This document shows positions 12,561 to 64,000 of a stretch of DNA of 64,000 bases, piece by piece; within the stretch, counting starts at the first letter, position 1; each line of letters opens with the position of its first letter. The DNA comes from a virus: positions 14,512-78,511 of IMG/VR virus record IMGVR_UViG_3300045988_183062; one strand, 5' to 3'. The notes beneath the pieces are model-generated. The model saw only the letters and a list, made by a program, of their open reading frames with translations, was not told the DNA's origin and searched no databases. Made by a program: the position numbers and the translations under genes.

Positions 12561-12691
12561 TTTTTGTCAAACCTCAAATTGCACATTTCTAAAAGCGCTG
12601 CATTTGAACGCTGCTATGTGTAAGATAGCACTCAACCAAACGCAAAATATGACAAATACACATTTTGCCAATACTGAAAGGAGACATTCTT

Positions 12692-13282
12692 ATGTCTGAA
12701 ATTCACAACACTGACATCCGCGAACTGCTCGATTCCATTCCGGTTATCCCTAATACGCTGATGGAAGAATATCTGACACGTCGGTACGAAATTACACCCA
12801 ACAAGGCTCGCGAAATCATCTACAACGCTTGCCGCAAAGGTTCAAACCGCCGTCCGGCCTGCTATGCTACCAATGACGGCCTTGCCAAAGCCGATTACAT
12901 TACTATGACGAGCCTGTATCGTAAGCGTTGCCGTGCATTCCGTGTTGCTTGCGAGTTCTTGCCGGAGAGCCGTCGTTTTTCGATTCCCGCCACCAGCCCT
13001 TGGTTGCTGAGCTTTTGCTTTGATAGCAGCGTCTATTATGTCTGTGAGTTTGAAAAAGGCAAGGAGCTCATTACGGCTGATATGATTCGCAACGCCGGTA
13101 TTCGCGAAGATATGATGTCCGTTACCTCTCGTATCGCTATTCTGCGCCCTGGCGCAAAGCGTGAGCTGTTGGATGGCTGCGGCATCCGCTTTTTCTGCAC
13201 GGTTGACGATGATTACAACCTCGATGTGACCGAGCAGGTTCCTGACGAGGAGGTTTGGGATGGCGTTCCCATCGTTGATTGA
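12692..13282 (+). CDS. Hypothetical protein
   Basis: RBS AAAGGAGA 8 nt before ATG; coding-like composition. Confidence 0.55.
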   Translation: MSEIHNTDIRELLDSIPVIPNTLMEEYLTRRYEITPNKAREIIYNACRKGSNRRPACYATNDGLAKADYITMTSLYRKRCRAFRVACEFLPESRRFSIPATSPWLLSFCFDSSVYYVCEFEKGKELITADMIRNAGIREDMMSVTSRIAILRPGAKRELLDGCGIRFFCTVDDDYNLDVTEQVPDEEVWDGVPIVD

Positions 13283-14033
13283 TTACAAACGATACATCGA
13301 AGAAAACAAGCCGAACGGAAAACCTGTTTCCAACCGTTCCGATTCACCATCTGAGAAGCCGGTTCTTTACCACGATACGGCAGGGTATGTAAAGAAACAC
13401 GTCCAAAATGCTTCTGCTATGATGAGCCAAATCCAAGATAATATGCCACTCAGCAAGATTTCAGCATCTATCCTGAATAGTGTTTCCATCGAACTTTTGA
13501 AGTCCGAACGCTCGATTTTAGCATCTTTCCAAGGACGAGAAAAGCCTGTTCCGTATAAAAAAGATGCTGGAATGGGTGCTATTCCAGATGATTTCTGTTC
13601 AGTATCAGCACCAAAACATGCGCTCCTGGCGGTACGCTATAAGTCGTTTTTGCCACCATTTCACTATGAGTGGTACAGCCGCAAAGCAAAAGAAAAAGAC
13701 GACGCCGGACAGTATTATTTGGATGCAGAATTCGACATTATTACCGAAGCAGCTGTGACAGAATACATCTCAAAGAATGGGCCTATCAACGTGCCATCAG
13801 GACTTGTGTATCTGGTATTTCGCAGAGGTATCCGACCAGGCGGTAAGATGCCGATAGACAACAATAACGTCTATACGGGGGCTATCACCAATGCTATCAG
13901 CCGCGTACTGCAACACGGTGATGGCTGGCAGCAAATGAGCTTCGTCTACACCGCCATAGAGGATACAGATGGGCCATATCTGGATGTGATTTTGTGCAAA
14001 AAATCAGACATCACAAGATGGATTGAAGCGTAG
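13260..14033 (+). CDS. Hypothetical protein
   Basis: RBS GGAGG 7 nt before ATG 13260, overlaps previous gene end. Confidence 0.55.
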   Translation: MAFPSLIDYKRYIEENKPNGKPVSNRSDSPSEKPVLYHDTAGYVKKHVQNASAMMSQIQDNMPLSKISASILNSVSIELLKSERSILASFQGREKPVPYKKDAGMGAIPDDFCSVSAPKHALLAVRYKSFLPPFHYEWYSRKAKEKDDAGQYYLDAEFDIITEAAVTEYISKNGPINVPSGLVYLVFRRGIRPGGKMPIDNNNVYTGAITNAISRVLQHGDGWQQMSFVYTAIEDTDGPYLDVILCKKSDITRWIEA

Positions 14034-14201
14034 CTCGGATACAACAATTTTGGGAACTGTAAAATACAACATTTTCAGGATGCTGTTTTTACGTCCCTGA
14101 AATTGTTGTATCTTTTCTTCGTTTTTAGGCGCAGTAATAGGCTTTCGGTGTATCATGTGGTACGGCATAGCGCTTCTTATATACAAATAGTAGGTGACAA
14201 A

Positions 14202-15467
14202 ATGACAAACGAGCAAAGGCTTCTGTGTTATCTCTACAGTGTGGATTCCATTCAGCGCAGACAGCTTGTGATTGCACTGTCGGATATGCCGTATCAGAGC
14301 GTTACGCTGGCAGTACGAAATGCAGTCAAGCACGGCTATGTAGAGGTATTTCGCAAGGATGAATCTAACCATCTGCGTATAACGCCAGACGGGGTAAAGT
14401 ACATCCGCTCTACGGCTCGTGATGCGCTGGATGGGCAAAAGCGAGCTACTATGAAGCGGAGGCTCAAGGGTGAAAATGGCAGGCGGCTGAACCGTATGGA
14501 AGTAGTAAGCTGCATGTGTCGAGCGGCAGGCATCAAACTCGCAAAGGAAGAACATATCCGTCTTGAAAATGTTCTGAATGCAGATGCGGATGACTACGCA
14601 AGATTCATGGACGACTACTTCTACGACAAAGGTCTGCTGTTTCTCTCTGACGAACTCTCTACAACCATCAAGGCTGAACAGACAGTTGGCGAGGAATACA
14701 CAACTGGCATGAGCCGTCTGGTAGGAGTGATAGTAAACTGCAAAGGAATCTTCTACGTTTACTGCACGCTGGACAGGTTGATGCGTTGGATTATCTCCTA
14801 TGAGCGCCGCAGAGTCGCAGCTATATCCAGGCTCTTTGAGAGCAGTGACGCAGCAAAAGCCAATGATGATTTTGCTGAAGTGTGTGCGTCTGTACCCAAA
14901 AGCGTCATCATTGGAAAGACTTGCGCCATGATTCCCAAAATCATCACAGGCAACAAGTACGGCAAGGTAGTCGAGAACGCAAGCAGAAGCACTATAACGG
15001 ATAAGCTGATGACTCTTGCGAATCTCGAACAGGTGTACGCATGCAACTACTTCGTTCCAACCAACACGCTCGGCGTAGAACTTCTCTCCAGAACAGTAAC
15101 GCTAACACGAAGCGACCTAAACAGTATGATTGAGATGTGGCTTTCAGAAATGACTGAACGATACACAACTGTTTCATCGCGAGAGTATGTAGAAGCCTAC
15201 ATCGAAGACCAAGAAGATAAGACGCTCATCTTTCCCATCATTGAGCTTGAAGAGCTTGTATTCCAAAAAGCAAGTAAAGAGCGCTATCACATTGTATGTG
15301 AAAGAGGAACGCAAGACGGAATCAGCCGAGTTATGGGCAAAAAACTCATTGACTTCAAAGATATGAACAACACGCCTATGCCTGCACACAAATATGACGA
15401 CTACGGAATCCGCCGTGATGGCATTAACCCGCTAACTCATTCTGGGTATTGGGAGGAAGAACAATGA
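14202..15467 (+). CDS. Hypothetical protein with N-terminal winged-helix-like segment (possible DNA-binding/replication-initiator-like)
   Basis: RBS AGGTGA before ATG 14202; N-terminal region resembles wHTH (LLCYLYS..QLVIALSDMPYQSVTLAVRNAVKHGYVEV). Confidence 0.5.
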   Translation: MTNEQRLLCYLYSVDSIQRRQLVIALSDMPYQSVTLAVRNAVKHGYVEVFRKDESNHLRITPDGVKYIRSTARDALDGQKRATMKRRLKGENGRRLNRMEVVSCMCRAAGIKLAKEEHIRLENVLNADADDYARFMDDYFYDKGLLFLSDELSTTIKAEQTVGEEYTTGMSRLVGVIVNCKGIFYVYCTLDRLMRWIISYERRRVAAISRLFESSDAAKANDDFAEVCASVPKSVIIGKTCAMIPKIITGNKYGKVVENASRSTITDKLMTLANLEQVYACNYFVPTNTLGVELLSRTVTLTRSDLNSMIEMWLSEMTERYTTVSSREYVEAYIEDQEDKTLIFPIIELEELVFQKASKERYHIVCERGTQDGISRVMGKKLIDFKDMNNTPMPAHKYDDYGIRRDGINPLTHSGYWEEEQ

Positions 15468-15739
15468 TAGCAATTCGAGTGTGCCCGATATGCAAGAAGA
15501 CGTTCGAGGGTAGAGTAGGCGTCCCGAAAGTCTATTGCGATGACTGCATGATAACGCAAGACCTTGCAGCAATGGACGAAGCCGTAAAGGAGTCAAGTTG
15601 GTTCTTTGACGGAGATGATGAGAAATTTGAAGAGATAGAAGACGAGAAAGACCCGATTCTCGTTCCATCACTTTTGCCGCCGCCTCCACGACAGAGTAAA
15701 GAGTCTCTTTTAAGTCTCATTCAAAAGAAGCGTAGCTGA
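15464..15739 (+). CDS. Small zinc-ribbon protein (CPICK...CDDC)
   Basis: RBS GGGAGGAAG before ATG; two CxxC pairs. Confidence 0.5.
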   Translation: MIAIRVCPICKKTFEGRVGVPKVYCDDCMITQDLAAMDEAVKESSWFFDGDDEKFEEIEDEKDPILVPSLLPPPPRQSKESLLSLIQKKRS

Positions 15740-15801
15740 TAGCGCACGTCCAAAACCTCAAAAGCAAATATTACTATTTTATGAACATCGAAGGACCACA
15801 A

Positions 15802-15830
15802 TTGAGACAATTACGAATTCGTGGTATAAT
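15802..15830 (+). promoter_or_regulatory. Sigma70-type promoter TTGAGA-17-TGgTATAAT
   Basis: Consensus -35, 17-bp spacer, extended -10. Confidence 0.6.
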
Positions 15831-15945
15831 GGCGATGAAAATAAAGAAGACGAAACACGGAAGGAGCGTAGCTGCCGAAGCGTAGCCGAAGAACTACAAA
15901 CCTCAAAGCGTAGCTCCTGACCGTAGGCACTTGAGGTTTTGAGAA

Positions 15946-16611
15946 ATGACTAAGAAGTTCATTGTTCCTTACGTAGTTGTATCGCTGGCAATGGCTGCTG
16001 CAATTAGCGTAGCCAGTAGTGATGGAGCCGTAGTTGCAAGAAGCTACTCTGGATACAACAACCAGAAGCCGAGCGTAGCTGCTGACTATACCTATCAAAC
16101 CGTAGGCATTCCCTGGAATAACACTTATGTTGAAGTGACTGCGACACAGGCGAGAGAAATCAAAGATGGCATCGTTATCTTTGCGTATCCTCGCTGCCCT
16201 TACTGCCGCAACCTGATTCCTGAACTTACCAGTATTGCCAAAGAAAAGAACCAGACCGTTTACTACTGCCAAATCGATGAGTACCGCGACATCTACGCAT
16301 ACGACGAGAATACTGGTGCTCCTGTGATGACAAAAGCAGCAGGGGAAGGGTATGATGAACTTCTCAATTGGCTGCAAGACTACCTGGCAGATTACACGAT
16401 AAGCGATAAGGATAAGAACAAGTACGAAATCGGAGAGAAGCGTATCGGCGCTCCTACCATTGTTCGCATCGAAGATGGTGAACCTGTTTCTACCTGGAAG
16501 CTAAGTTCGGTTGAAGATGTTTCGTACCCGGAGAACAAATACGACTCGTGGGATGATACTGTACGAGTTAAAGTCTCTGACTCGCTGAGAGACTACTTTG
16601 AGGAGGCATAA
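15946..16611 (+). CDS. Secreted thioredoxin-fold protein with CPYC active-site motif
   Basis: Signal-like N-terminus MTKKFIVPYVVVSLAMAAAISVASS; YPRCPYCRNLIPEL (CxxC). Confidence 0.65.
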   Translation: MTKKFIVPYVVVSLAMAAAISVASSDGAVVARSYSGYNNQKPSVAADYTYQTVGIPWNNTYVEVTATQAREIKDGIVIFAYPRCPYCRNLIPELTSIAKEKNQTVYYCQIDEYRDIYAYDENTGAPVMTKAAGEGYDELLNWLQDYLADYTISDKDKNKYEIGEKRIGAPTIVRIEDGEPVSTWKLSSVEDVSYPENKYDSWDDTVRVKVSDSLRDYFEEA

Positions 16612-16613
16612 AG

Positions 16614-16802
16614 ATGAAAGGCTTTAACATCGGATTGGTGCTGTACGTCGATTCGCAGTTTCTGGTAACGGCTTGTATTATGGCTGTTGTCTTCACGCTG
16701 ACCGGCGTGACTGAATACCTTCCCACTTGGGTTATTACGCTGTACTTCTTTGGCCTTTATGGGTTCTTTGCCTATAACGCACTCAAAGACGACGATAATT
16801 AA
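16614..16802 (+). CDS. Small membrane protein (2 predicted TM helices)
   Basis: ATG 4 nt after previous stop, hydrophobic. Confidence 0.45.
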   Translation: MKGFNIGLVLYVDSQFLVTACIMAVVFTLTGVTEYLPTWVITLYFFGLYGFFAYNALKDDDN

Positions 16803-16980
16803 AGCGTAGCCCGGCGGGTGAAACCGTAGGTGCGCGTGGAACGAACCGTAGGCAGAGGATGAAAGCATCGCTGCCAATAGCAAAGGAGCTTATGAACGAC
16901 GGAAGCGTAGCTGCCACCATGAAACTGGTTGCTGGTTGCGTAGCCGTCGTTCTTTTTCTTTTTAGGAGGCGTAACCAAAC

Positions 16981-17220
16981 ATGGTATATGAAGTGATAAG
17001 TCCGAGAGGACGCGGAACCGGAACTATCATTGGAGTTCATACGGAATCCGCACAGTGCATTGACTCTCTTGATATGCAAAAAGCGATGGTAGCAGGAGGT
17101 AGTAAAATCACCTTTGAGGGGACGACAGAAGAATATGAAGCTGTAAAGGATAAGCTGCATCCGAAGACGAAGGTGACTATTCTGAAAGAAGCCGGGAAGA
17201 AAATGAAAACGAAGAAGTAA
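16981..17220 (+). CDS. Small hypothetical protein
   Basis: RBS AGGAGG upstream; 79 aa. Confidence 0.45.
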   Translation: MVYEVISPRGRGTGTIIGVHTESAQCIDSLDMQKAMVAGGSKITFEGTTEEYEAVKDKLHPKTKVTILKEAGKKMKTKK

Positions 17221-17315
17221 GAGATAGGATGAAGCAGTTGCCTGATATAGAGCTATGAGACAACGCTTTGAAGCACACCGGAATTGGGCTGAAGTGAACA
17301 GCCGGAAAGGCAATT

Positions 17316-18074
17316 ATGACCACGAACTTTGAGAACACCTATCAGGCATTCATGCACTGCGACGTAGACAAGCTGGCTGCGGAGTTTGCAGCTATGTATC
17401 ACAGTGGCGGCGAGGAACGCGACCGGCTTACCGATGCGAAGGAAGAGGTCAATGCTGCATTCATGCGCATGAAGACACTCACCCTGAAAGTAGAGCCGGA
17501 ACAAAAACTGCTCTTCGTCTGCAAGGGCTTTGGCGATGTTGGAGATGACACCGTCTGCATCGAAGCCAATGACCTTCGCGAGTGGAAAGAGAAGCACAAA
17601 AAAGTGCCTGAAGCGGAAGCCATCAGCGATGAAATGCTTACCTTTATGAGCACCGACGACATCATGGCGGCCGTAATGAAGCAGGACCTGCCGACCCAAT
17701 ACGCCTTTGAATTTTGCAGCTGGGAAGAGATTCTCAGCTGGAAGCTGGCATCGTCCAGTATCTATATCTACGGCCTTGAGTGGTGCCTTTCCCGCGTGTT
17801 GTGGGAGATGACCTTTTTTGGCATCGAACCTGAAGGTATGGAGAACGCCAAAGCTGAAATCGACGCGAACCTTGAGGAAGCAAAGAAAGACCTCGCTGAA
17901 AACGGCGAACCCAGCAAAGGCATTCCGTTCGAGGAAGTCGTAAAGAAGCTGCTGGGCGACGACTATACCGAAGACTGGTATCCCGAAGAAGAGCAGGAGA
18001 GAGACCGGCGGAATATGGCGATTGCGGCCTACAAGGGAAACCATGAAGCAGAAAAACTGCTCGCGATGCTGTGA
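17316..18074 (+). CDS. Hypothetical acidic protein
   Basis: ORF with coding-like composition, RBS GAAAGG. Confidence 0.5.
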   Translation: MTTNFENTYQAFMHCDVDKLAAEFAAMYHSGGEERDRLTDAKEEVNAAFMRMKTLTLKVEPEQKLLFVCKGFGDVGDDTVCIEANDLREWKEKHKKVPEAEAISDEMLTFMSTDDIMAAVMKQDLPTQYAFEFCSWEEILSWKLASSSIYIYGLEWCLSRVLWEMTFFGIEPEGMENAKAEIDANLEEAKKDLAENGEPSKGIPFEEVVKKLLGDDYTEDWYPEEEQERDRRNMAIAAYKGNHEAEKLLAML

Positions 18075-18133
18075 GGCACCCGATAATCCATCCAGAACAA
18101 AATCAACGCAGAACAGAAAGGAGATGACGACGG

Positions 18134-18922
18134 ATGCTTCTTCATATTTTTGGCGATACACATGGACCGGATGAGATTTTCAAAATCAATCCGAAATGGT
18201 TCCTTAACCGTGACATCACAAAAGATGATGCGATTGTTGTTTGCGGAGACTTCGGATTCCCGTTCTTTCCGACAGACCGCATCCCGGCGGACGACCTCAA
18301 GACACTGGACATGCCGCAACACTGTATCAAGTCGGCGCGAGCGTACCAGATGTACACCGACTGGATGAAGTCTTTTCCTTGCAATATCCTCTTCATCGAT
18401 GGTAACCACGATAACCACACCTTCTGGGCAGAGCAGCCTACCGAACGGTGGAACGGTGGCATGATTCAACGCCTGCCGGAAGCACCGAATGTCATCCACC
18501 TGATGCGTGGCGAATACTACACGATTGATGGCATGACTGTATGGTGCATGGGCGGTGCAGAGTCTATCGACAAAGCATACCGTACGGAAGGCGTCACTTG
18601 GTGGAGGGAAGAAGTCCCATCTCAGAAAGAGATGTGGCACGGTCTTGATACGCTGGAATCTCACGGAAACGAAGTGGATGTTATCCTTACGCACATGCTT
18701 CCACAGATGCTCATGCCAATCTATTTCAGAGACATCAGTCCGATTCACGACCCAACGGGCGTATACCTTGATGAAATCTACCGCCGGGTGAAGTTCAAAC
18801 AATGGTATTGCGGCCACATGCACCAAGACATCGATAAACCGATGTACAAGCTCAGAGTGCTGTACAACCAGATTGCGGAAATAAACACGGACGCCTTTGG
18901 GAAAGAAGGTGATAACCAATGA
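18134..18922 (+). CDS. Calcineurin-like metallophosphoesterase
   Basis: Motifs GDTHG, GDFGFP, GNHDNH. Confidence 0.75.
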   Translation: MLLHIFGDTHGPDEIFKINPKWFLNRDITKDDAIVVCGDFGFPFFPTDRIPADDLKTLDMPQHCIKSARAYQMYTDWMKSFPCNILFIDGNHDNHTFWAEQPTERWNGGMIQRLPEAPNVIHLMRGEYYTIDGMTVWCMGGAESIDKAYRTEGVTWWREEVPSQKEMWHGLDTLESHGNEVDVILTHMLPQMLMPIYFRDISPIHDPTGVYLDEIYRRVKFKQWYCGHMHQDIDKPMYKLRVLYNQIAEINTDAFGKEGDNQ

Positions 18923-19761
18923 GCGACATCTATGTGGCAGGAGATGTGCATGGGAACTACAAAGGCCTCATCGAATCCCTCGTAGCAGCCGGATGGAATG
19001 AAGGAACCGACAAGCTCGTCTTCGTCGGTGATGTAGTAGACCGTGGAAAGGAAAACGCAAAGGTCGTCAACTTCATTACGGAACATCCAGATACAGTCCA
19101 TCTCGTTCTTGGTAACCACGAATACGAACATAGGCAGATGCTTCGATACTATAAAACACTCGCACAGTCTCTGACCGTCAGAAAGCTCGCAGCCTGGGTA
19201 TTTCTGCACTACAGACAGGGAGAGAACATCTTCAGAACAAAAGAAGAACTCGAAGCGCTCAGATGCGGCATGGAGGAGAGAAAGAATATTCTCGCCGCAA
19301 GACCTCATACATTCGCTGGGTGGCAAAAGCTCTTCATCACCTACACTCTCGCGTGGGAGAATGATGGGCTTTGGCAGATTGTCGTATACTTGCTTGACAA
19401 TATGTGTGGCACACCGTATGAAGCAGAGCATACCATCTACGAGTACCTGTCTGGTACGAAAAAGACGAGAGAGAACTTTGAAGTTATCTTCGAGAATCAG
19501 GCACAGGAACTCAACATCACACCTCTGCCTGGCTCTCGATTCAAACAAGTCGTAGTGACACACAACAATCCGTTCGGTCGAGTCTTTGATTATGATAAAG
19601 ACGAAATGCTGACCGGTCATCGGGATACGCTCTATATTTTTGGACACATCCCTCATAAAGAAATCACTCGCATGGACAGACCTAACTCCGGCTGCACATA
19701 CCTCGACATTGATACATCTCCATACGGAGTATCCGTCATTAAGCTATCTAACTATCTCTAA
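18919..19761 (+). CDS. Metallophosphoesterase of PPP/ApaH-like type
   Basis: Motifs GDVHGN, GDVVDRG, GNHE; start overlaps previous stop (ATGA). Confidence 0.75.
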   Translation: MSDIYVAGDVHGNYKGLIESLVAAGWNEGTDKLVFVGDVVDRGKENAKVVNFITEHPDTVHLVLGNHEYEHRQMLRYYKTLAQSLTVRKLAAWVFLHYRQGENIFRTKEELEALRCGMEERKNILAARPHTFAGWQKLFITYTLAWENDGLWQIVVYLLDNMCGTPYEAEHTIYEYLSGTKKTRENFEVIFENQAQELNITPLPGSRFKQVVVTHNNPFGRVFDYDKDEMLTGHRDTLYIFGHIPHKEITRMDRPNSGCTYLDIDTSPYGVSVIKLSNYL

Positions 19762-19815: not shown

Positions 19816-20232
19816 TTGTACGGGAAGAATGTCGGACTAAACGCTCGGAACCTCGTAGCAGGCAGCCTTGTGGCGCTGTGAAGGGAAACCAAAGGGAATA
19901 ATAATGCTGTGACTTACACGAATAGTTACACGCGTGTAAGCCATAGACGAATCCTGTTGCACGGCGTGTAAGTTCTCTTTGTGCTGGATGAACTACGGCA
20001 ATAGGCATGGTCCAGTACATCCGGCACGCGCTTCATAGCGTGCAAGCGCTGCCAGACATCATATCAGAGCAGCCAACCATGACACAGTTGGCAAGCAACT
20101 CTATGTGGGAGCCGAGTGCGGCGTTCACGCAAACCACAAACAGTAGAACGGAACTCGTTGTAAAAAGTGCCGGAATCAGCAAAAACTCGTCGGGAAAATG
20201 TGAAGCTTGCCGTACACGGAAAAGCGTGGCGA

Positions 20233-20261
20233 TTGATAAATACCGCAACATGTCGTATAAT
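20233..20261 (+). promoter_or_regulatory. Sigma70-type promoter TTGATA-17-TATAAT
   Basis: Consensus hexamers 46 nt upstream of ATG 20307. Confidence 0.55.
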
Positions 20262-20306
20262 GTTGTATTAGAGAAATCTGGCGCAACCCAGACAAAGGAG
20301 AACACG

Positions 20307-22451
20307 ATGGGCAAAAGCAAGGCAAAACACAATAGCAAGAAACCAACTGGCAGCTTCAAAGAACGATGCAAACAAGCGGTACTGAAGAACATAGCTGGAT
20401 TCGGCGGTGAGATTGAGAAGGACCCATCCCTTGCCTTTGAGTTTGACATCGACAACAAAACAATAGACCGGCGAGTGGAAGCTATTGCTGAAACACGAGA
20501 CATGGCAGTAGCTATTGCCAAAGAATATATACCGGAAGACCTTGAGGTACGATACGAGGCCGAATGGGTCCGCCTGAATATGGTGATGACACCTCCGTTC
20601 AACATAGGCGAGCGGCAGTTCAATTACTCGCTCGCTGCGGCCATCTGGATACTGGACACCATCAGAGCAAACCACAAGATGGATGAGGCCCTCGCTTTGC
20701 TGCCAAAGGACGAGGAAAAGCTCGCGTCTATCGAACTACCGTCTTGTGTATCGCCTTGTTATAGTGAAGCCGTAATTCGCAGTATGGTTTATGTCATCCT
20801 GCATCGAAACGAGGATTGTGTCGGCATCAACAACCCGGAGAAGCCTCCGCTCAAGTATCCTGTTACAGACAGCTATACCGTTGCGGGTAAGCAGCATCAG
20901 AATGTACTGTCCAGAAATGTGTTTGATACCATTATTGGCTTGCTCCCGGAAGACAAGGTCGATAATGCTGTAAATACGTATGCCATACAGGTAAGGGGAG
21001 CCATAAGTCGTTATTTCTGTTGCCGCTCCAAGTGGGTCAAGGAAGAAAAGAAATGCCTGGATGAAATCCATCGCCTTGATGACGAGCTTAATAAAGTGAG
21101 TGACGAGGCAAATGCTTTTTCCAAAAAGACGCATTCTATGGTCAAGGCAAAAGCCATGCCGCTTGCTAAAAATAATATGCCTGGAGTCGGCGCGAAAGCC
21201 GAAATGACCATCGGGCTCCATTCTATTGCAGAACGCGGAGAAACTATCGTTGCAAAGTTAGAGGCAATGCAAACCAAGCTCCAAAAGCTCAACGAGTTGG
21301 AAAGAGACTTTGCTTATGATAGTGCCGAATGCGCCTATTGGACAGAAGAAACATGGACAAAGAAATACTCGACGGCCGTAGCAAAACGTGCGGTGAAGTT
21401 TGAAGTCATGGACCCGTATGCAGTATGCTTCGCATTCTATTACATGATAGATAACGGCGATAATCTTCCGTGGCTTTACTATCCATCCTGTGTGCTTCTC
21501 TCCCACGCAGCGGCACAACTACCGTGGTGTGGAGGAGCAGTCAAACAATGCGTGGATGCAACAGGTCAAACCACTTTCTATATTGATGCCAATACAGCCA
21601 AGCTCCATCTGATGGAAGACAACCTAACAAGCGATAGTAGTGTTGTGCCAATCTGCTGGAATACGATGTCCTTGGTACAACAAGAAGGTGCAGACGCAAA
21701 TACTCCCGTGCGTATAACCCCGGCGGCCGCCGTATACACCTATACCGATGGAGTCCTCGTTCCACGTAACACAGCCAGCGCAGACCCGATAGAAGCAACA
21801 CTTGCCGATTTGGGTGTGACAGCGCCAGAAGGTAGAGCTGTATACGCCGCATACATATCTCTACTGTCCAACCTAAAAGGCCGCATCGATTTTCCCAACG
21901 ACGCAAAAGATGAGTGCGATGCTCTACGTGCCAAATGCGATGCGTATGAAGCAGAGATTGAGAATCTCAAGAGTAAGGATGAAAAGAATAAGCAGGCACT
22001 CTATAAAGCTGAAAAGACAATCGGTGAGCTGACTACTGCCATAGAGAAGGCTTCTGCAGAACACGAGAAAGAAAAGCAAGAGCTGAACGACCTTCGTGAG
22101 CTTGTGTTTGCGCTGACCAATGACGCAGACTCTGCCGCCAGGAAAGATTCCAAGACGCAGGTAGAGTTCCCGTACCACACCACCAAGAAGCACATCGTCT
22201 TTGGCGGACATCCTTCCTGGCTGAAGGCAATACGGCCGATGGTGCCGGATGTGAAATTCGTGGATGGAGTTCCGAGCACTGAACAAATCAAGGGCGCGGA
22301 CATCGTATGGCTGCAAACCAACTACCTCTCCCATAAGGCTTTCTACAAAATCATCGACATTGTCCGCAGCAAGAACATCCCGCTGCGCTATTTTACTTCC
22401 GCCTCCGCTGCAAAATGCGCAGAGCAGGTAGTCAATGCGGACCAGCAATAA
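20307..22451 (+). CDS. Large hypothetical protein: N-terminal unique region, coiled coil, C-terminal ~100 aa alpha/beta domain with VFGGHP motif (shared with 24043-25743 protein)
   Basis: RBS AAAGGAGAACACG before ATG 20307; heptad-like segment (EAEIENLKSKDEKNKQALYKAEKTIGEL..); C-terminal HIVFGGHPSWL..ADIVWLQTNYLSHKAFYKII. Confidence 0.6.
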   Translation: MGKSKAKHNSKKPTGSFKERCKQAVLKNIAGFGGEIEKDPSLAFEFDIDNKTIDRRVEAIAETRDMAVAIAKEYIPEDLEVRYEAEWVRLNMVMTPPFNIGERQFNYSLAAAIWILDTIRANHKMDEALALLPKDEEKLASIELPSCVSPCYSEAVIRSMVYVILHRNEDCVGINNPEKPPLKYPVTDSYTVAGKQHQNVLSRNVFDTIIGLLPEDKVDNAVNTYAIQVRGAISRYFCCRSKWVKEEKKCLDEIHRLDDELNKVSDEANAFSKKTHSMVKAKAMPLAKNNMPGVGAKAEMTIGLHSIAERGETIVAKLEAMQTKLQKLNELERDFAYDSAECAYWTEETWTKKYSTAVAKRAVKFEVMDPYAVCFAFYYMIDNGDNLPWLYYPSCVLLSHAAAQLPWCGGAVKQCVDATGQTTFYIDANTAKLHLMEDNLTSDSSVVPICWNTMSLVQQEGADANTPVRITPAAAVYTYTDGVLVPRNTASADPIEATLADLGVTAPEGRAVYAAYISLLSNLKGRIDFPNDAKDECDALRAKCDAYEAEIENLKSKDEKNKQALYKAEKTIGELTTAIEKASAEHEKEKQELNDLRELVFALTNDADSAARKDSKTQVEFPYHTTKKHIVFGGHPSWLKAIRPMVPDVKFVDGVPSTEQIKGADIVWLQTNYLSHKAFYKIIDIVRSKNIPLRYFTSASAAKCAEQVVNADQQ

Positions 22452-22589
22452 AAGCTGTTACTTGCTTCGGCTCAGAGCAAACTATCTACGCAGATTGCTA
22501 ATACTTGCTAAATATTTGCTACAAGTCACTTTCGCAATTTTGAAAATTTTCTCTGAAAAAGTCTCTGTTTTATAAAAGAGGGGATTGGT

Positions 22590-23396
22590 ATGAGCATCAT
22601 TCGAGCAGAAGTCTCAGGATACCGTCACATCGGATACTATGATTCAGAATTTGTCATAAAAGGCATCTTACACATTGATACCAGGCAATACAACTTCCTA
22701 CACTACGACGGAGCCTTTGGATTCTCTCGTCTTGAAATCAAAGCCGGAAAGGTGAAAGCATCCTACGACGAAGCAGAAGGCTTCCAGATGCAGCAGGGCA
22801 AAGAGGCCCCGGAAGGCGGGCTTCTGAATGTGAACCGAAAGGATGCTATCAAGCAAATACAGGAAGCAGCGACTTCCTATCTAACAACAGACCTCAATGC
22901 CTGGGCGGAATACTTCAACCTTGCAACTCGCAGCGCCGGGCCATTTGCCTACACCCTAACACAGTGCATTGCCTTTCCGACTGAAAAATACCGCTGCACG
23001 ATAACACCCGCATCACCTTACTGCGAACTGATTTATAATTTTGGCTTCGATGAAGAATGTCCGAAAGTCGAATCACCGTTGTTCCCAGGCGAAGAACTGT
23101 TCGACACAAAGATTGACCTTGACTTTATCGAAGGACCAGCCAGATGGCTCTATAGTATCCTGCTTTTGGATGACGAAGAGCACGAGCTTCCACTCAATAA
23201 GGACTATTCCCGTATCGTCAGCTTAGAGATGGCCCTCGACTGCAAACTGACCTTTGAGGGCTTCCAAGACGATGAACAGACAGGACAACGCAAGAACTTG
23301 ATTCTCTTCTCGGATGTTATGAGAGAAAAGAAGCAGAGAGAGTTTGACACTGCTTATCAGCGTGCGAAGGAAGGCGTTGAGAACCGCAAGCCATAA
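22590..23396 (+). CDS. Hypothetical protein
   Basis: RBS AGAGGGGA before ATG. Confidence 0.5.
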   Translation: MSIIRAEVSGYRHIGYYDSEFVIKGILHIDTRQYNFLHYDGAFGFSRLEIKAGKVKASYDEAEGFQMQQGKEAPEGGLLNVNRKDAIKQIQEAATSYLTTDLNAWAEYFNLATRSAGPFAYTLTQCIAFPTEKYRCTITPASPYCELIYNFGFDEECPKVESPLFPGEELFDTKIDLDFIEGPARWLYSILLLDDEEHELPLNKDYSRIVSLEMALDCKLTFEGFQDDEQTGQRKNLILFSDVMREKKQREFDTAYQRAKEGVENRKP

Positions 23397-23507
23397 AACG
23401 CGCTACACGCCATAAATTCAGGCATCGGCATGCAGAAAATGAAAACGAGTTGTGCATAGGGCGATAAACTATACAGAGACACATCGTACTCAGAAAGAGG
23501 CATCTTC

Positions 23508-23972
23508 ATGGAACTTGCAGACCATAACTCGAAGCAGTTCGAGGGAAACATCATCAGATTGCAGCTTCGTACCACTTGTACGAAACTAAGTCTCGATGCA
23601 GAACCAAACAAAGAATCAGAACAGCGACTTATTGTAGCAGAGCAGGGAGGTCATGTATATCTCGAACAGCTCGAATATCTGGATGGAGATGAACCAGTCC
23701 GAGACCACTACACCATCCATCATCTACCGGCCGATACAATACATTCCGTGCTCGCGAAAGTAAAACATCATTTGCCGATGCTCCTGCAAACAGATGAAGC
23801 GCAACACACCGACCGCTGGTATCTTACCCTGACAAACGATGTGGGGGAACAATATCTCTTCCGTGGCCGTATAGGTCTTGACCAGAACAAAGAGCTTTCA
23901 GATTACCTCCGCACGACTCTTCAATTGCCTAACTTATGGGCGTTTATCAAAGAAGAACTGAAAAATCTGTAA
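23508..23972 (+). CDS. Hypothetical protein
   Basis: RBS AAAGAGG before ATG. Confidence 0.5.
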   Translation: MELADHNSKQFEGNIIRLQLRTTCTKLSLDAEPNKESEQRLIVAEQGGHVYLEQLEYLDGDEPVRDHYTIHHLPADTIHSVLAKVKHHLPMLLQTDEAQHTDRWYLTLTNDVGEQYLFRGRIGLDQNKELSDYLRTTLQLPNLWAFIKEELKNL

Positions 23973-24042
23973 CATTCTTACCGCCAACATTGGTTGTTGA
24001 TACCGCTCTTGGTATAATACAGATAGAAAAGGAGTGAATGAC

Positions 24043-25743
24043 GTGGCAAAGAACAAAATTCCAAAAACCATGACAGTGGGCGCGTTGTACGATAAGTATG
24101 CCGAACGCATGGCGCTATTTGCGAGCCGAAGCAAAGCGTGCATAGAACTGTCCGACAAATACTACCGTGAACATCAAGACAAGGTAGATAAGCATATCAA
24201 AGCAATTTGCCACGGAGAGCATCCGCTTCAATACATATTAGGCTTAGATACAGTGCAGAGCCGCAATGCAGTCCTGTGCCTGGCATGTATTCTAAGCAGC
24301 GACGAAAAAGACAAGCCACAGTTTACCGAAGACCTCCTATCAACCTATCTGAAAAACACGAAGAAAGAAAAGTTGCCTCCGATTAACGAAAAAGCGCTCG
24401 AAGCAGTATACAGTAAGATAGAATCAACACCTGATAACGACAAGAATAAGCAAACCATAGCGTATGATGCTTTTACGGAGCATAAACTGAACCCTCCATC
24501 CAGGGCGTTCTTTGCGGTATATGCGTCTCGGTATAAGAACTTCGATTCTTGCAGCAATGACCTCTACACCAATGCACTCTTGGCGATGATGCTGCTTGGT
24601 AATATCAACACGACTGCCAAGGTCCGCTACATGGAACGCTACGACTATTTGTATCGAACCATAGTACGGCCGCGATTTGCTGCTAAAAGCTTCGGTGCCA
24701 CCTGGATTAACGACTCCAATACGATGCGCCGGAAAACAGGTATAGAGCGCGATGAAGAAAACGCTCTCCAGATGCCTCTTATCGCGACACTCACGGCCAG
24801 TGGCGTAATGAACCAGCAAAGAATGGATAAGAAGGTGCTGTCCAAGGAAATGCTGATGCACATGGCAGTCGCTGCTTATACGGCTGCCGGTATCGATAAA
24901 GTAGATGCACCGCTTGAGAAGGTATGGGAAGCGATTGACGCAGAAAACGAATCTGCTTACGATGACGAAACCATACAGATAGCAAAAGAGAAAGTAAAAA
25001 TATTTCGTACCGCACTCTTTAATGCTACTTACTATACGATGCTTTGCGAGCAAACGAAGAAAACTGTGCTGGAAGGATTGCAGGATTACTTCTTCAATCC
25101 GCAAGGCACACGTCTGAACAACGAGCTGAAGAAGTGCAAGCGACAGATGGAACGGGACGGTAAGCTGCTGAAACAGCAGAAAGAGTCTCTGAAGGAATAC
25201 AAGGTCCGCGCCGATGCGGCAGAACGTGCGGCCGAAGATGCCAGAAACCGTTATGCAGGTATCCAATCCAAGGTCGAGTCCCAGCAAAAGCAAATCACGG
25301 ACCTGGAGGAGCAGCTCAAGGCGCTGCAGGAAGAGAACGCCAGGCTGCGTCAGCAGCTTCCAGCTCAACCGACTGAAGAAAGAGCAGAGGCTGCCACGGC
25401 GGAACCAGACATCAACTATGAGGAGGAGCTTTCAGAAATCTTCTCGGCCAAGAAAATCGTCTTCATCGGCGGGCATCCAAACATCATGGGCAAATTTGCT
25501 CAGAAATACCCGGAAGCAGCTGTCGTCGAGAAAGATAAGGCAATGACGGCCGATAGGCAATTGGACGGTGCGGCCGCCGTACTCTTCAAGACTGACAGCA
25601 TGGGCCATAAAGAGTATACGCCAATCAAAGACCTTGCCGGACGAAAAGGCGTTCCGGTAGGCTACATCCGTGATGTCACATCGCTGAACCTTGTAGAGCA
25701 GAGCGTATACGAGGAACTCAAAAAACTGAATATCACAGAATAA
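24043..25743 (+). CDS. Large hypothetical protein with coiled coil and the same C-terminal VFIGGHP domain
   Basis: RBS AAAGGAG; probable GTG start 24034-24043; coiled coil (ESQQKQITDLEEQLKALQEENARLRQQL); C-terminal KIVFIGGHPNIMG..AAAVLFKTDSMGHKEYTPIKD. Confidence 0.6.
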   Translation: MAKNKIPKTMTVGALYDKYAERMALFASRSKACIELSDKYYREHQDKVDKHIKAICHGEHPLQYILGLDTVQSRNAVLCLACILSSDEKDKPQFTEDLLSTYLKNTKKEKLPPINEKALEAVYSKIESTPDNDKNKQTIAYDAFTEHKLNPPSRAFFAVYASRYKNFDSCSNDLYTNALLAMMLLGNINTTAKVRYMERYDYLYRTIVRPRFAAKSFGATWINDSNTMRRKTGIERDEENALQMPLIATLTASGVMNQQRMDKKVLSKEMLMHMAVAAYTAAGIDKVDAPLEKVWEAIDAENESAYDDETIQIAKEKVKIFRTALFNATYYTMLCEQTKKTVLEGLQDYFFNPQGTRLNNELKKCKRQMERDGKLLKQQKESLKEYKVRADAAERAAEDARNRYAGIQSKVESQQKQITDLEEQLKALQEENARLRQQLPAQPTEERAEAATAEPDINYEEELSEIFSAKKIVFIGGHPNIMGKFAQKYPEAAVVEKDKAMTADRQLDGAAAVLFKTDSMGHKEYTPIKDLAGRKGVPVGYIRDVTSLNLVEQSVYEELKKLNITE

Positions 25744-28346: not shown

Positions 28347-28871
28347 ATGGGAAAATTTAAGAAGCAAACATGCTGCTTTACGGGGCATCGAGACATTCCG
28401 CCGGGCGAGCAGACAAAGATACTGACCAGGGTAAGGCACCGGCTTATCCCGCTTGTTCAGAGCGGAATCATCTACTATGGAGTGGGTGGTGCTTTAGGGT
28501 TCGATACCCTCGTAGCTGAGATGCTTATTGAGCTGAAGAAAGAAAACAGCCGCCTGCGTATCATCGAGGTGCTTCCCTTTGAAGGCTACCGCGACCGATG
28601 GACTCCAGAACAGCAGCTCCATGCCAAGAACTTAGACAAAAAGATGGACAAAATCGTCTATGTCAGTAAAGAACCGAGCAAGAGCGCTTACTTGACCCGT
28701 GACCGCCACCTGGTTGATTGCTCCGACTACTGCATCTCTTACTGCACGAAACAAACGGGAGGTACAGCCTATACTGTGAAATACGCTCTTGAGAAACAGT
28801 TGACGGTCTATAACGCATCATCGTTCGATGTGACATCATTACTCGGAGCAGCACCTCTTCATCACAAATAA
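28347..28871 (+). CDS. SLOG/DUF1273(YpsA)-like Rossmann-fold protein (tentative)
   Basis: N-terminal CCFTGHR motif and size ~170 aa; RBS AAAGGAG. Confidence 0.45.
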   Translation: MGKFKKQTCCFTGHRDIPPGEQTKILTRVRHRLIPLVQSGIIYYGVGGALGFDTLVAEMLIELKKENSRLRIIEVLPFEGYRDRWTPEQQLHAKNLDKKMDKIVYVSKEPSKSAYLTRDRHLVDCSDYCISYCTKQTGGTAYTVKYALEKQLTVYNASSFDVTSLLGAAPLHHK

Positions 28872-43972: not shown

Positions 43973-43986
43973 AAGGAGAACTCAAC

Positions 43987-44598: not shown

Positions 44599-44609
44599 CG
44601 GAGGCATCT

Positions 44610-60226: not shown

Positions 60227-61000
60227 ATGAGACGGACAAAAGCAGTGATAACTGCTGTGGCAGTAGGCGTACTGACCTTTGCCACAGCTTGCGCGAGTAG
60301 TGCATCTACTCCCGTATCAGTACCACCAGACTCTTTTGCCAGCATAACGGAATCAGCGGCAACGGTTGAGACAGCGAATGATGCGATTTATCTAAGCACC
60401 GACAGCATCCCGGAACCCACACCTCATGCTCCTTTGTCGAAGCCAACAGCTGCACCAGAGCCTACTCCTACACAGACTCCTGAACCAACCGAAGCGCCAA
60501 CGCCGGTCCCTACAGATACTCCTGCTCCACTCACGACTAGCGTATGGGGTGATGTGGTGCCAGCAGCATACGGTTCGTCCTACGGGACCATCTCATGTAA
60601 CAGCGCAGGTATCAACGCTTCCCTTATCTGGGGCGATGACCAAGCTCTCCTCGACAGCCGCAGTGGTGTATATCAGTACACAGGCTCCTATCAGGTAGGC
60701 TACGGTGGTTGCCATCTTCTTTGCTCTCATAACGACAGCACTTTGGCTTTGCTTCAATACGTGAGTATTGGAGACGAATTTGTGGTCACTACAGACTACG
60801 GACAATACGTATATACGATAGATTCCGCTAGGCCCGGAACCGTAACGGAAGATGCAAGCACTGTAGTGGCAGATGATGGGACAATTCTCGTAGACCTGTC
60901 GGACAGCACGGACAGACTTGTAATGTATACTTGCTATCCGTTCGGATACTACCAAACCACAAACCAACGCTATGTCGTTAGAGCCACGCTGTCTGCTTAG
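60227..61000 (+). CDS. Lipoprotein with Pro/Thr-rich linker and sortase-like C-terminal domain
   Basis: Signal LTFATAC; C-terminal His..Cys pattern and LVMYTCYP resembling sortase TLxTC. Confidence 0.5.
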   Translation: MRRTKAVITAVAVGVLTFATACASSASTPVSVPPDSFASITESAATVETANDAIYLSTDSIPEPTPHAPLSKPTAAPEPTPTQTPEPTEAPTPVPTDTPAPLTTSVWGDVVPAAYGSSYGTISCNSAGINASLIWGDDQALLDSRSGVYQYTGSYQVGYGGCHLLCSHNDSTLALLQYVSIGDEFVVTTDYGQYVYTIDSARPGTVTEDASTVVADDGTILVDLSDSTDRLVMYTCYPFGYYQTTNQRYVVRATLSA

Positions 61001-61239: not shown

Positions 61240-61300
61240 TTGCCATTCCTTTCGAATTGACTACAATATTGATTGTACGATAGATACCAAACACATAAAG
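61240..61300 (+). promoter_or_regulatory. Conserved-family promoter copy h (TTGCCA-16[..CGAATTGAC]-TACAAT) with leader hairpin 61337-61376
   Basis: See findings. Confidence 0.55.
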
Positions 61301-61398
61301 ATGTTACGATTTTCTATCGTTCACAATCTGTTTTAAGAGCGGACTTATCCCATTCCGGGGTAGGCCCGCTCTTTTTTATTTGAAAGGAGAAATTTCCA

Positions 61399-62556: not shown

Positions 62557-62728
62557 ATGGTATCAACTGTTCCGTTCTTGATTAGATATTAACTCATAGC
62601 AATACAAAATCTATCCAATTCTATCCAATAACCAATCCAATCTATTACTAATATGGTAAACGCGACCCTTCATCTCAAATATGACGATGCCACTCGTATC
62701 CAGTCATTCATCCAACAAAAGCTCTTGG

Positions 62729-62790
62729 TTGTCAAAATATGCGAATTGCGTAAGATAAAAGTGTACGATAGATAACATTATCGAAAAGGC
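62729..62790 (+). promoter_or_regulatory. Conserved-family promoter copy g (TTGTCA-16[..TGCGAATTGCG]-TAAGAT) with leader hairpin 62828-62866
   Basis: See findings. Confidence 0.6.
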
Positions 62791-62885
62791 GTCTTGCCCT
62801 TCGTATTCACAATTTCGCTTGAAGAGCGGACTTCCCACGCGGGAGGCCCGCTCTTTTTGTGTCAAAACAAAGGAGTGTATTTACC

Positions 62886-63218
62886 ATGACTAAAATTTTT
62901 ACTATCGCAGCAAACGAAATCATCGGCCCATTCAGCACCGAGACGACCATGTTGCAGTTTGAGTATGACTCTGAAAAAGCGTATGACGTTCTCACGCAAG
63001 TACGCAACGCCGTAAAGTCTTATCTGGATACCGAAGAAGGCAAAAAGACGCTGCGACTCAACAGTGGCTACTTCAACTGGGGTGATGCGGCCGAGATTCC
63101 TGATGGCTTCTATGAGTCGTTCGGCCTTAAAAAGCTGGACGCGCCGGTTGCTGATTTGACCGTGGACTTCAACGAAGACCTGACGGCAGATGAAATTTCC
63201 GATGAGGAGGACTACTGA
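62886..63218 (+). CDS. Small acidic hypothetical protein
   Basis: RBS AAAGGAG. Confidence 0.5.
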   Translation: MTKIFTIAANEIIGPFSTETTMLQFEYDSEKAYDVLTQVRNAVKSYLDTEEGKKTLRLNSGYFNWGDAAEIPDGFYESFGLKKLDAPVADLTVDFNEDLTADEISDEEDY

Positions 63219-64000
63219 TGGCTCAGTTCAATGACATGCTTGCTCAAATCGGTGCAATGCTATCTAAGAAAGAAAATGAGCCGTTTTCCTATGAAGAGCT
63301 TGCATCGATGCTGAAAACGAGCCCTGATGTTCTCAAGACCTTTGAGGATGTCTACAAGACCCAAGTGCTGGAAAGCAGCACGTTATCTGACAATCTTCTC
63401 CAGTGGGATACGGCAACCGTAAAGGCAATGCTCGATAAGAGCGTGCCTTTTACGAAAGAGCTGGACAATCTCATTGACCAAATCGTTGCCGAGCTGATGG
63501 ATGGCACCAGAATGTACATCTATGAGCCGGAGCGTGGTGGATATTACGTGCGGTATTCTACTAACCAGCACATTCTCCCGCCTGTAACGAACGGAGACCT
63601 CCAGAAGTTCCCGGAAGAGCTTCGGCCACAGCTGACCGGCAATCTGATGAAGATTGACATTTCGGAACCGTCTTATAAGGTGCTGCTCAGCCACTACAAA
63701 GCGTATCTCGATGCGAGAAATGACCGAAACAAGGCGATGCAGTATCACATGTTCCGCCAGGGCCTCGACATTCTGGACCTCGATGACATCACATATCAAA
63801 TGCTTGAAATGAATCCGAACACGATGAGCTACTGGCTGCCGCCACTGGTTGCCGCCTTGGACGGCAACAAGTTCTTCAAGGTGCCGGAGACAAAACTCTT
63901 GCATGTGCCCATCACGATGCTCCAACTCACGAGACTCGGCTTTGAGACGCTTAATCCCGTGACGAAAGCGATTGTGAATCGTTACTGCAAGAGAATCTTC
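63218..64000 (+). CDS. Hypothetical protein, 5' part (continues past window end)
   Basis: ATG overlaps previous stop (TGATG); open to end of window. Confidence 0.5.
   Translation, partial: MAQFNDMLAQIGAMLSKKENEPFSYEELASMLKTSPDVLKTFEDVYKTQVLESSTLSDNLLQWDTATVKAMLDKSVPFTKELDNLIDQIVAELMDGTRMYIYEPERGGYYVRYSTNQHILPPVTNGDLQKFPEELRPQLTGNLMKIDISEPSYKVLLSHYKAYLDARNDRNKAMQYHMFRQGLDILDLDDITYQMLEMNPNTMSYWLPPLVAALDGNKFFKVPETKLLHVPITMLQLTRLGFETLNPVTKAIVNRYCKRIF

Follow-up and report, generated by a model that had tools for sequence, protein, structure and literature searches.

Hodors are conjugative megaplasmids of 211-389 kb that occur in human-gut Bacillota and have been misfiled as huge phages (Yuan et al., bioRxiv 2026, PMC12934698). 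Their gene set comprises Rep_3, ParA/B/M, VirB4, VirD4, a short HD/MOBH-like relaxase with a separate helicase, sortases and a Sec module. TerL is confined to integrated prophages, and the elements were concluded to be plasmids misfiled as phages. The only prediction of an origin of transfer (oriT) for Hodors is the non-coding gap immediately 5′ of the HD/MOBH-like relaxase gene (PMC12934698). Described here is a 64,000-nucleotide stretch of DNA, termed the window (positions 14,512 to 78,511 of IMG/VR record IMGVR_UViG_3300045988_183062), and in particular the region at positions 12,600-64,000 that follows a block of type IV secretion system (T4SS) genes. The window appears to be part of a ~245-kb Hodor-type conjugative megaplasmid of human-gut Clostridia/Bacillota. 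The region itself fairly probably represents 51 kb of a longer gene array with uniform orientation on such a plasmid, which would carry a Rep_3 replicon and a Gram-positive-type T4SS. It would constitute a mixed auxiliary and maintenance segment with ordinary double-stranded promoters and plasmid-encoded regulators, and its orientation would be driven by replication.

The leading regions of conjugative plasmids are also of relevance. Relaxosome genes are on the lagging side of oriT and the leading region is opposite; anti-defence genes are enriched at open reading frame (ORF) positions 1-28, the transferred strand is the template, and promoters active in single-stranded DNA (ssDNA), termed Frpo, are found. 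Leading-region islands run from oriT to umuCD, and a UmuC-like gene often bounds them (Samuel et al., Nature 2024, PMC11541004). A first-pass annotation of the window had likened the region to a 50-kb co-oriented accessory island of this kind, resembling the leading region of a plasmid or of an integrative and conjugative element. The conjugative element and the enzyme set hold up on further analysis; the discrete island and the leading region are not supported.

Searches with 12.5-25-kb pieces by megablast gave no match among PLSDB plasmids or INPHARED phages. By exact-protein look-ups, however, the window is 99.9% identical in nucleotide sequence to 225-249-kb contigs of hundreds of human-gut assemblies. 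Two of the element's proteins are found in 509 and 407 index blocks, almost never on contigs longer than 1 Mb. The reference contig of the element is ena:ERZ27308564:k141_68465 (245,528 bp). Relatives are filed in IMG/VR as "viral" contigs of 222-389 kb, and the sole GTDB match is a 224-kb contig of a metagenome-assembled genome (MAG) labelled "Clostridiales bacterium".

The element resembles Hodors in its gut habitat, its misfiling in a viral database, a contig size within 211-389 kb and a GC content of ~48% in the window, compared with 47.1% for Hodor group G1. VirB4, a VirD4-type coupling protein (T4CP) and, upstream, a pilin (PF18895) are present; VirB6 is not identified by sequence, as has been reported for Hodors as well (PMC12934698). 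A short HD/MOBH-like protein, whose relaxase role is predicted, is preceded by a short non-coding gap. Near its gene on the reference contig are SecY/SecE, RecG, a first RecD2, a primase, a signal peptidase and YqaJ, and a second RecD2 (TIGR01448, 500 bits) and the T4SS pilin are just upstream of the window. The separate RecD2 helicase, SecY/SecE and one sortase are again Hodor-like, and a 1684-aa surface protein is present; no proteins of >7300 aa or ~2600 aa and no trigger factor were seen in the ~105 kb examined. The element is represented by a contig of ~245 kb, whereas complete Hodors average ~351 kb.

VirB4 is 85% identical to that of contigs with the 172-nt gap that is a hallmark of G1, and only ~48% identity between G1 and G2 has been reported (PMC12934698); the element is therefore placed on the G1 side. 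The HD orthologue in a G1 relative, with its 172-nt gap upstream, scores 22.1 bits, which equals the gathering threshold. Relative to G1-type Hodors, the element displays ~74% nucleotide and 72-85% amino acid identity, and its gap is 163 nt rather than 171-172 nt; these differences make it a distinct lineage. In relatives with 80-85% VirB4 identity (L142, L147), Rep_3-ParA-ParB is encoded on the opposite strand, next to a gap that measures 2.2-2.45 kb and has a GC content of 30-38%. By synteny, Rep_3 and the origin of replication (oriV) would be at about −35 to −41 kb relative to the window, at or beyond the contig end. In the G1-type contig L154 (IMGVR_UViG_3300045988_181067, 389,222 bp), RecD2 and VirB4 are ~39 kb apart, compared with ~14 kb here, a spacing that would fit a prophage insertion in VirD4 such as that reported for Hodor01. 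Whereas the plasmid class has been described before, the region, its promoter and leader regulon and its ribozyme have not been: the Hodor study covers none of them, nor does it deal with leading regions or anti-defence (PMC12934698).

Genes were called with a codon-usage model and checked by Pfam and by conservation in relatives. Positions 12,600-64,000 contain 66 genes, 62 on the plus strand and 4 on the minus strand (binomial p = 2e-14), at a coding density of 87.5%. The median product is 195 aa, against 425 aa in the upstream T4SS part, so that the earlier observation of small genes, nearly all on the plus strand, stands. All four minus-strand genes are real, two by Pfam family and two by conservation in relatives. 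Long minus-strand antisense ORFs (≤304 aa) opposite plus-strand genes (17253-19656, 35567-36481, 41983-43527 and 48384-50377), which a greedy longest-ORF call picks, were rejected as genes: they score poorly in the codon model, and the Pfam matches are on the plus-strand ORFs.

Co-orientation is not specific to the region. Outside the window edges all called genes are also on the plus strand, over at least 105 kb from −33 kb to +72.5 kb (L149, L007, L001). In a 389-kb G1 contig (L112) genes run in the same direction 65-77 kb beyond oriV, with only the Rep-Par cluster opposed. Positions 12,600 and 64,000 are limits set by the T4SS genes and the window edge, and the co-oriented array continues on both sides. 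Nor is much of the region accessory. From the DUF5697 gene to the metallophosphoesterases (12.6-19.8 kb) there is strict synteny, with 52-86% amino acid identity, in three diverged lineages and one GTDB MAG contig. Many genes of the second half recur in dozens of IMG/VR relatives (45-87% identity) with their relative order preserved and lineage-specific insertions and deletions in between; among them are 35645, 37200, 39994, NADAR, the 48067 family, macro, the nucleotidyltransferase, the helicase, ParB/Srx, the MmcB-like gene, the metallo-β-lactamase (MBL) gene and 63218. Conservation of gene order across lineages, in the 12.6-19.8-kb block and at many later genes, makes much of the supposed island backbone. 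Judged by gene order in relatives, the region combines a conserved scaffold and variable cassettes.

Co-orientation of genes with replication is usual in Bacillota. In relatives the GC skew changes sign at the AT-rich gap beside Rep_3-ParA-ParB, and the gene array starts there; cumulative GC skew rises across the window. Because the array starts where the skew flips, its orientation can be linked to replication. The common orientation would most likely result from co-orientation with replication, probably unidirectional, from the Rep_3 origin and not from the order of conjugative entry.

The region is split into many transcription units, by a terminator after VirB4 and at least ten copies of a promoter motif. 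The motif, TTGnCn-N5-TGCGAATTGCnTAnAAT, is found ten times between 29,998 and 62,756, always on the plus strand, compared with 2.7 copies expected on both strands; none of 100 shuffles reached ten. Nine of the copies are intergenic and 5′ of a plus-strand gene, and the tenth, at 48,508, falls immediately within the 5′ end of the called ORF 48507-48899. A −35 hexamer TTGnCn is followed by a conserved spacer box TGCGAATTG(C), a −10 hexamer TAnAAT and a conserved GUACGAUAGAUAAC start. By this architecture the motif, referred to here as the house promoter, is a predicted sigma-A-type promoter with a conserved spacer box, and the conserved spacer suggests a dedicated regulator.

At least 21 house promoters are present in 105 kb, all on the plus strand. 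They precede the HD gene, the primase and YqaJ operons, the pilin/T4SS operon and downstream operons. The T4SS operon and the first third of the region are devoid of copies, none being found from −4.4 kb to +30 kb. In IMG/VR, where the motif is strongly enriched in this plasmid family, more than 119 loci match it exactly, most of them from the family. Three tRNA genes are located just downstream of the window (L001 20513-21158, about window 71.9-72.6 kb) with a house promoter before them; no tRNA genes were found in the window.

Six house promoters of the element are followed by a conserved leader of ~120 nt. The leader consists of the GUACGAUAGAUAAC box, a variable hairpin, UUCACAAUUUCGCUU and a GC-rich terminator hairpin with a U-run just ahead of the ribosome-binding site. 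These leaders precede a 327-aa gene, the HD gene, the primase operon, the YqaJ operon, the MBL lipoprotein gene and the 62859 operon. Among 33 non-redundant leader copies, compensatory changes are present in 8 of the 12 terminator pairs. The leader matches no Rfam family, sub-threshold L20-leader matches being the only ones obtained. A pairing predicted between its CGCUU and the terminator stem (5′ half) looks like an antiterminator-terminator switch. The leaders may tie the distal operons of the region to the relaxase, primase and YqaJ operons in a regulon controlled by attenuation or antitermination. It is concluded that the region is probably expressed from ordinary duplex promoters and not from ssDNA, under a plasmid-specific control that is partly shared with the DNA-processing genes.

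Lambda Q/qut and pLS20 conAn are processive antitermination systems. They offer an analogy: there as here, the promoter spacer contains a conserved element, the box transcribed first is conserved, and an intrinsic terminator lies ~100 nt downstream, ahead of the operon. They differ in that at least six full leaders and at least 21 promoters are found here in 105 kb, and in that no Q-like or ConAn1-like protein was identified. A bolder proposal, which is speculative and rather unlikely, is that of a single plasmid-wide regulon. It would join the second half of the region with the HD relaxase, primase, YqaJ, pilin and T4SS genes, be driven by the house promoter and be gated by leaders at key operons, the NADAR, macro, MazG, phosphoesterase and acidic-protein genes forming a co-induced "transfer and establishment" programme. 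In this proposal the leader terminators would be read through by means of a putative plasmid-encoded antiterminator or ligand.

Alternative explanations were considered. It is improbable that the region is a conjugative leading region, which would enter the recipient first and display early anti-defence expression, possibly from ssDNA, against ADP-ribosylating or nucleotide-signalling defences. The likeness to the islands of Samuel et al. is that the region is part of a conjugative element and borders on the T4SS, that its many small genes are uniformly oriented as in known leading regions (PMC11541004), that a umuC homologue, often an island boundary, is present, and that NADAR, macro, MazG-like, ParB/Srx and small acidic proteins are plausible counter-defence functions. 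However, 35.7 kb and ~27 ORFs separate the region from the predicted oriT upstream of it, and the region is on the same side of that site as the relaxase and T4SS genes, which by the rule of Samuel et al. places the region on the lagging side; measured against this sole and unverified prediction, oriT is distal and the region would provisionally enter last. With canonical transfer, away from the relaxase gene, the minus strand would be transferred as template for the plus-strand genes, and the region would be at ~65-85% of the 245-kb circle. With transfer towards the region, the DNA-processing and T4SS genes would enter first and the transferred plus strand would be the coding strand, which would make transcription from ssDNA impossible. 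Neither polarity gives a canonical leading region. In all called ORFs no SSB, PsiB, ArdA, KlcA/ArdB, Acr, orphan methylase or toxin-antitoxin pair was found by Pfam at E < 0.01. Folding of 19 intergenic gaps on both strands gave no Frpo-like ssDNA hairpin, the best folds being terminator hairpins (the z-scores are approximate, as they stem from mononucleotide shuffles). Long inverted repeats at 12.48 and 14.04 kb were tried as oriT or ssDNA promoters and rejected as terminators, since each has a T-run and directly follows a stop codon. No relaxase was detected by NCBIfam or Pfam in the 164-aa ORF upstream of RecD2 or in the first genes after VirB4. The promoters are of the ordinary duplex sigma-A type common to the relaxase and primase operons, co-orientation is plasmid-wide, and the gene content is conserved backbone and not fast-turning-over. 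The leading-region idea is thereby weakened.

It is highly improbable that the region is the early or auxiliary region of a huge phage or phage-plasmid, with co-opted T4SS-like genes and enzymes for host takeover. The IMG/VR filing of the relatives as viral genomes of 222-389 kb agrees with such an origin, as do the presence of Mor-family, YqaJ, MazG-like, HNH and tRNA genes, a NADAR protein that also matches T4 gp30.3, and several matches to PHROG families of unknown function. Genes for capsid, portal, terminase or tail, however, were not seen among Pfam-scanned genes and precomputed annotations over ~145-150 kb here and in relatives; a Rep_3-ParA-ParB replicon and a complete-looking conjugation set are found instead, and the Hodor study places TerL only in integrated prophages (PMC12934698). 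It is unlikely that the 12.6-19.8-kb block, perhaps with 34.9-40.9 kb, extends the mating apparatus or relaxosome instead of being cargo. In favour are the strict synteny of the block with VirB4 in every lineage examined, its winged-helix-turn-helix (wHTH)-like protein of 454 aa and its secreted lipoprotein of thioredoxin-like type. A second VirB4-like ATPase, a HerA-like P-loop protein and membrane proteins at 34.9-39.9 kb, with the sortase, flotillin and lipoproteins beyond, point the same way. Separating the block from VirB4, however, is a strong terminator, no protein matches a known T4SS or relaxosome family (Pfam, NCBIfam), and the VirB4 paralogue has no homologue among the relatives' loci sampled.

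The reading of the region as a slice of a Hodor-type array has points against it as well. Rep_3, the Par genes and the replication origin are seen in relatives only. GC skew within the window is weak (+0.03 overall and slightly negative at third codon positions), and because of this the replication argument rests mainly on the origin-proximal flip, and a coding-strand bias could equally explain the skew. Since about half of the region's proteins have no detectable family, the label of a mixed auxiliary segment covers the annotated half only. The NADAR, macro, MazG, phosphoesterase and SLOG cluster exceeds what is expected of a random plasmid segment and is compatible with anti-defence. Lastly, the predicted oriT gap consists of one house promoter with its conserved leader and terminator, all of which are found elsewhere on the plasmid. 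The gap may be the regulatory region of the HD gene, and because it coincides with a promoter-leader copy the published putative oriT, a context-based guess, needs revisiting. MOBH oriTs are not always beside the relaxase gene, and the true oriT could be elsewhere, a point for the leading-region reading.

An additional regulatory feature is a predicted hepatitis delta virus (HDV)-like self-cleaving ribozyme. HDV-like ribozymes are rare in bacteria. The same Rfam family scores 55-61 bits in six relatives, and the ribozyme is always ~25 nt 5′ of the homologue of 33081-33479, whichever gene precedes. This suggests a role in 5′ processing of the 33081-33479 mRNA.

The annotated half of the region is a mixture of functions. 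The Y-family polymerase, UvrD-like helicase-nuclease, PD-(D/E)XK, ParB/Srx and HNH proteins relate to DNA-damage tolerance and processing; NADAR, macro, MazG-like, two metallophosphoesterases, SLOG and the nucleotidyltransferase are nucleotide and ADP-ribose enzymes; and flotillin, the sortase, lipoproteins and the VirB4 paralogue belong to the envelope. Most of the gene assignments of the first-pass annotation are borne out. Pfam confirms the M23 peptidase, VirD4-type T4CP and VirB4-like ATPase directly upstream of the region, as well as the Y-family polymerase, NADAR, both metallophosphoesterases, the RlaP nucleotidyltransferase and the UvrD-like helicase; the macro domain, which Pfam missed, was recovered by its match to PDB 5e3b, and the ParB-like protein has a ParB/Srx fold. 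Blastp reproduces the paralogue pairs 20007/24034, 41078/41232, 42142/43879, 42886/49721 and 48067/48507. Weaker signals underlie the MazG, HNH and HAD assignments, namely a sub-cutoff PRA-PH score, a PHROG HNH match of 1e-5 and a DxDxT motif. Flotillin/SPFH, sortase, MBL lipoprotein, YpsA-SLOG, Mor-like, truncated VirB4 paralogue and thioredoxin-like lipoprotein genes extend the earlier list.

Macro and NADAR are hydrolase types known to reverse DNA ADP-ribosylation. The two domains are within 7 kb of each other, as might be compared with DarT-DarG and DarT-NADAR pairs. Unlike in such pairs, no DarT/DUF4433 or other ADP-ribosyltransferase was detected beside NADAR or macro by Pfam or PADLOC, and the neighbouring family B proteins appear helical. 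Because no adjacent ADP-ribosyltransferase was detected, the stand-alone hydrolases fit detoxification of a foreign ADP-ribosyltransferase better than a toxin-antitoxin pair. PADLOC detected no complete known defence system among the larger proteins and gave only short, generic GajB helicase-motif matches and weak single-protein matches. NADAR, macro and several small, very acidic proteins (29031-29420, 48067-48387, 57624-57911 and 62859-63218; isoelectric point (pI) ~4.1) are plausible candidates for an anti-defence role. This subset may shield the plasmid from ADP-ribosylating or DNA-targeting systems, as resident conserved functions and not as first-entering genes. The only trace of a known anti-defence gene is a faint Apyc1 match of the secreted MBL lipoprotein (16 bits, cutoff 50).

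Helical orphan families surround NADAR in a cassette-like repeat, with family A copies at 42142 and 43879 and family B copies at 42886, 44610 and 49721. Family B genes are directly 5′ of ADP-ribose hydrolase genes in two cases, 42886 (NADAR) and 49721 (macro), and 44610 precedes a 491-aa orphan. The family is almost without homologues outside the plasmid lineage (three clusters). Family B proteins were considered as ADP-ribosyltransferases and rejected, given the lack of a Pfam or PADLOC match, the helical-looking sequences and only three homologue clusters.

The coordinates of these and other features are collected in Table 1. The conserved backbone block encodes, in addition to the DUF5697 protein, a 257-aa protein, the 454-aa wHTH-like protein, the thioredoxin-like lipoprotein, small ORFs, a DUF6557 protein and the two metallophosphoesterases. 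A third member of the 20007/24034 family is upstream of RecD2 in relatives. The membrane/P-loop block encodes the small HerA-like P-loop protein, a conserved 295-aa protein, a multi-transmembrane (TM) protein, an acidic 288-aa protein, the truncated VirB4 paralogue, a TM protein and an HNH-like protein; the VirB4 paralogue, with the HerA-like protein and membrane proteins around it, is 28% identical over 221 aa to the T4SS VirB4. Near homologues of the region, relatives L057 (2424-4817) and L070 encode a LigA-type, NAD-dependent DNA ligase (8e-71); none was seen in the window.

Table 1. Features of the window and of related sequences. Positions are those of the window, negative ones upstream of it, unless a contig is named.
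Feature	Position	Strand	Basis or remark
Predicted oriT gap, 163 nt	-23,273..-23,111 (L149 9838-10000)		k141_68465
HD protein P0136, 189 aa	-23,110..-22,541	+	k141_68465, behind 163-nt gap
House promoter copies in region	29998, 31001, 38143, 42091, 42788, 48003, 48508, 53778, 61251, 62740	+	motif search
House promoter copies outside region	-29574, -24390, -23258, -19256, -15859, -14469, -4444, 65774, 66389, 66938, 71850	+	same contig
Leaders upstream on same contig	L149 8745-8851, 9877-9994, 13879-13997, 18666-18785		
Promoter and leader before MBL lipoprotein gene	61251..61398 (leader 61,275-61,396)	+	leader model R1, 76.5 bits
Promoter and leader before 62859-63218	62740..62878 (leader 62,763-62,878)	+	leader model R1, 97.5 bits
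HDV-like self-cleaving ribozyme (predicted)	32984-33055	+	Rfam RF02682 ("HDV-F-prausnitzii"), 47 bits, gathering score 44
Ribozyme in relatives	L042 4911-4980, L104 4679-4748, L115 11902-11971		
Ribozyme in relatives	L043 803-872, L065 7464-7533, L078 9427-9496	-	
Gram-positive-type T4SS block (context)	1..12444	+	Pfam; full gene models from same contig
C-terminus of 1684-aa surface protein	1-1284	+	gene model, same contig
M23 peptidase	1332-3215	+	Pfam; followed by 445-aa protein
VirD4-type T4CP	4598-6769	+	Pfam 4e-49; followed by 400-, 115- and 392-aa proteins
VirB4-like ATPase	9736-12444	+	Pfam 2e-19
Intrinsic terminator closing T4SS operon, 24-nt-arm hairpin then T-run	12483..12559	+	repeat search, sequence; ssDNA fold z = -5.9 (approximate)
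Conserved backbone block	12665..19761	+	Pfam; synteny in relatives
Two Metallophos genes	18134-19761	+	Pfam 4e-21
Paralogue pair (814 aa, 569 aa), coiled-coil and DUF2325-like C-terminus, two orphan genes between	20007..25743	+	blastp, Pfam
Y-family (UmuC/DinB-like) DNA polymerase	25897-27207	+	IMS 5.8e-47, IMS_C 1e-21
90-aa ORF after Y-family polymerase	to 27483	+	gene call
XRE-type helix-turn-helix (HTH) protein	27506-27814	-	Pfam HTH_31 1.4e-6
BlaI/MecI-type winged-helix repressor	27821-28216	-	Penicillinase_R 3.4e-10
YpsA-type SLOG domain protein, predicted nucleotide binder	28347..28871	+	Pfam YpsA 2.4e-15
Minus-strand genes kept in relatives	29427-29840, 41516-41983	-	conservation
Flotillin/SPFH membrane-scaffold protein	31103..32947	+	Band_7 3e-20, Flot 1e-9
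Membrane/P-loop block	34926..40884	+	blastp, PHROG, synteny in relatives
Small HerA-like P-loop protein	34926-35501	+	
Truncated VirB4-like ATPase paralogue, lineage-specific	38195-39469	+	blastp to VirB4 3e-24
Membrane-anchored protein, C-terminal HNH-like zinc motif (weak)	39994-40884	+	PHROG HNH 1e-5
Cassette-like repeat of helical orphan families A and B around NADAR	42142..45227	+	paralogy
NADAR hydrolase	43463-43972	+	Pfam 3.6e-27
Pair of small acidic paralogues, 106 aa (pI 4.1) and 130 aa, 50% identity	48067..48899	+	blastp; own house promoter each
Macro domain protein, SCO6735/TARG1-like type	50325-50804	+	PDB 5e3b 1.6e-13, 2fg1 3e-10
MazG-like NTP pyrophosphohydrolase (weak)	51597-52025	+	PRA-PH 5e-4, 20.8 bits, cutoff 21.3; followed by 140-aa orphan
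RlaP-family nucleotidyltransferase	52479-53486	+	Pfam 1.5e-17
UvrD-like superfamily 1 (SF1) helicase, 959 aa, weak PD-(D/E)XK signal	53843-56722	+	AAA_19 3e-12, UvrD 1.6e-6, PDDEXK_3 0.002
Mor-family HTH protein	56719-57342	+	Pfam Mor 1.2e-9
HAD-like protein (weak)	57892-58431	+	DxDxT motif only
ParB/Srx-fold protein	58482-59375	+	
MmcB-like PD-(D/E)XK protein	59519-60184	+	
Sortase	60227..61000	+	Pfam Sortase 8e-14
Secreted MBL lipoprotein	61399-62556	+	Lactamase_B 8e-20
Acidic 119-aa protein	62859-63218	+	next gene starts at 63218, 3′ end beyond window

The window is placed on a very prevalent and barely studied class of human-gut megaplasmids, and what had been taken for an island is mostly conserved plasmid architecture and not leading-region cargo. 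Tests of entry order are consequently less urgent than mapping oriT at all. The spacer-box house promoter, the ~120-nt terminator leader and the conserved HDV-like ribozyme, the latter predicted, are new regulatory features for these plasmids. Candidates for counter-defence are the stand-alone NADAR and macro proteins, together with the four very acidic small proteins; at least two of the latter (48067 and 62859) are preceded by strong conserved promoters. Should the plasmid-wide regulon proposed above be true, counter-defence in a Gram-positive megaplasmid would be independent of leading-region position and of ssDNA promoters.

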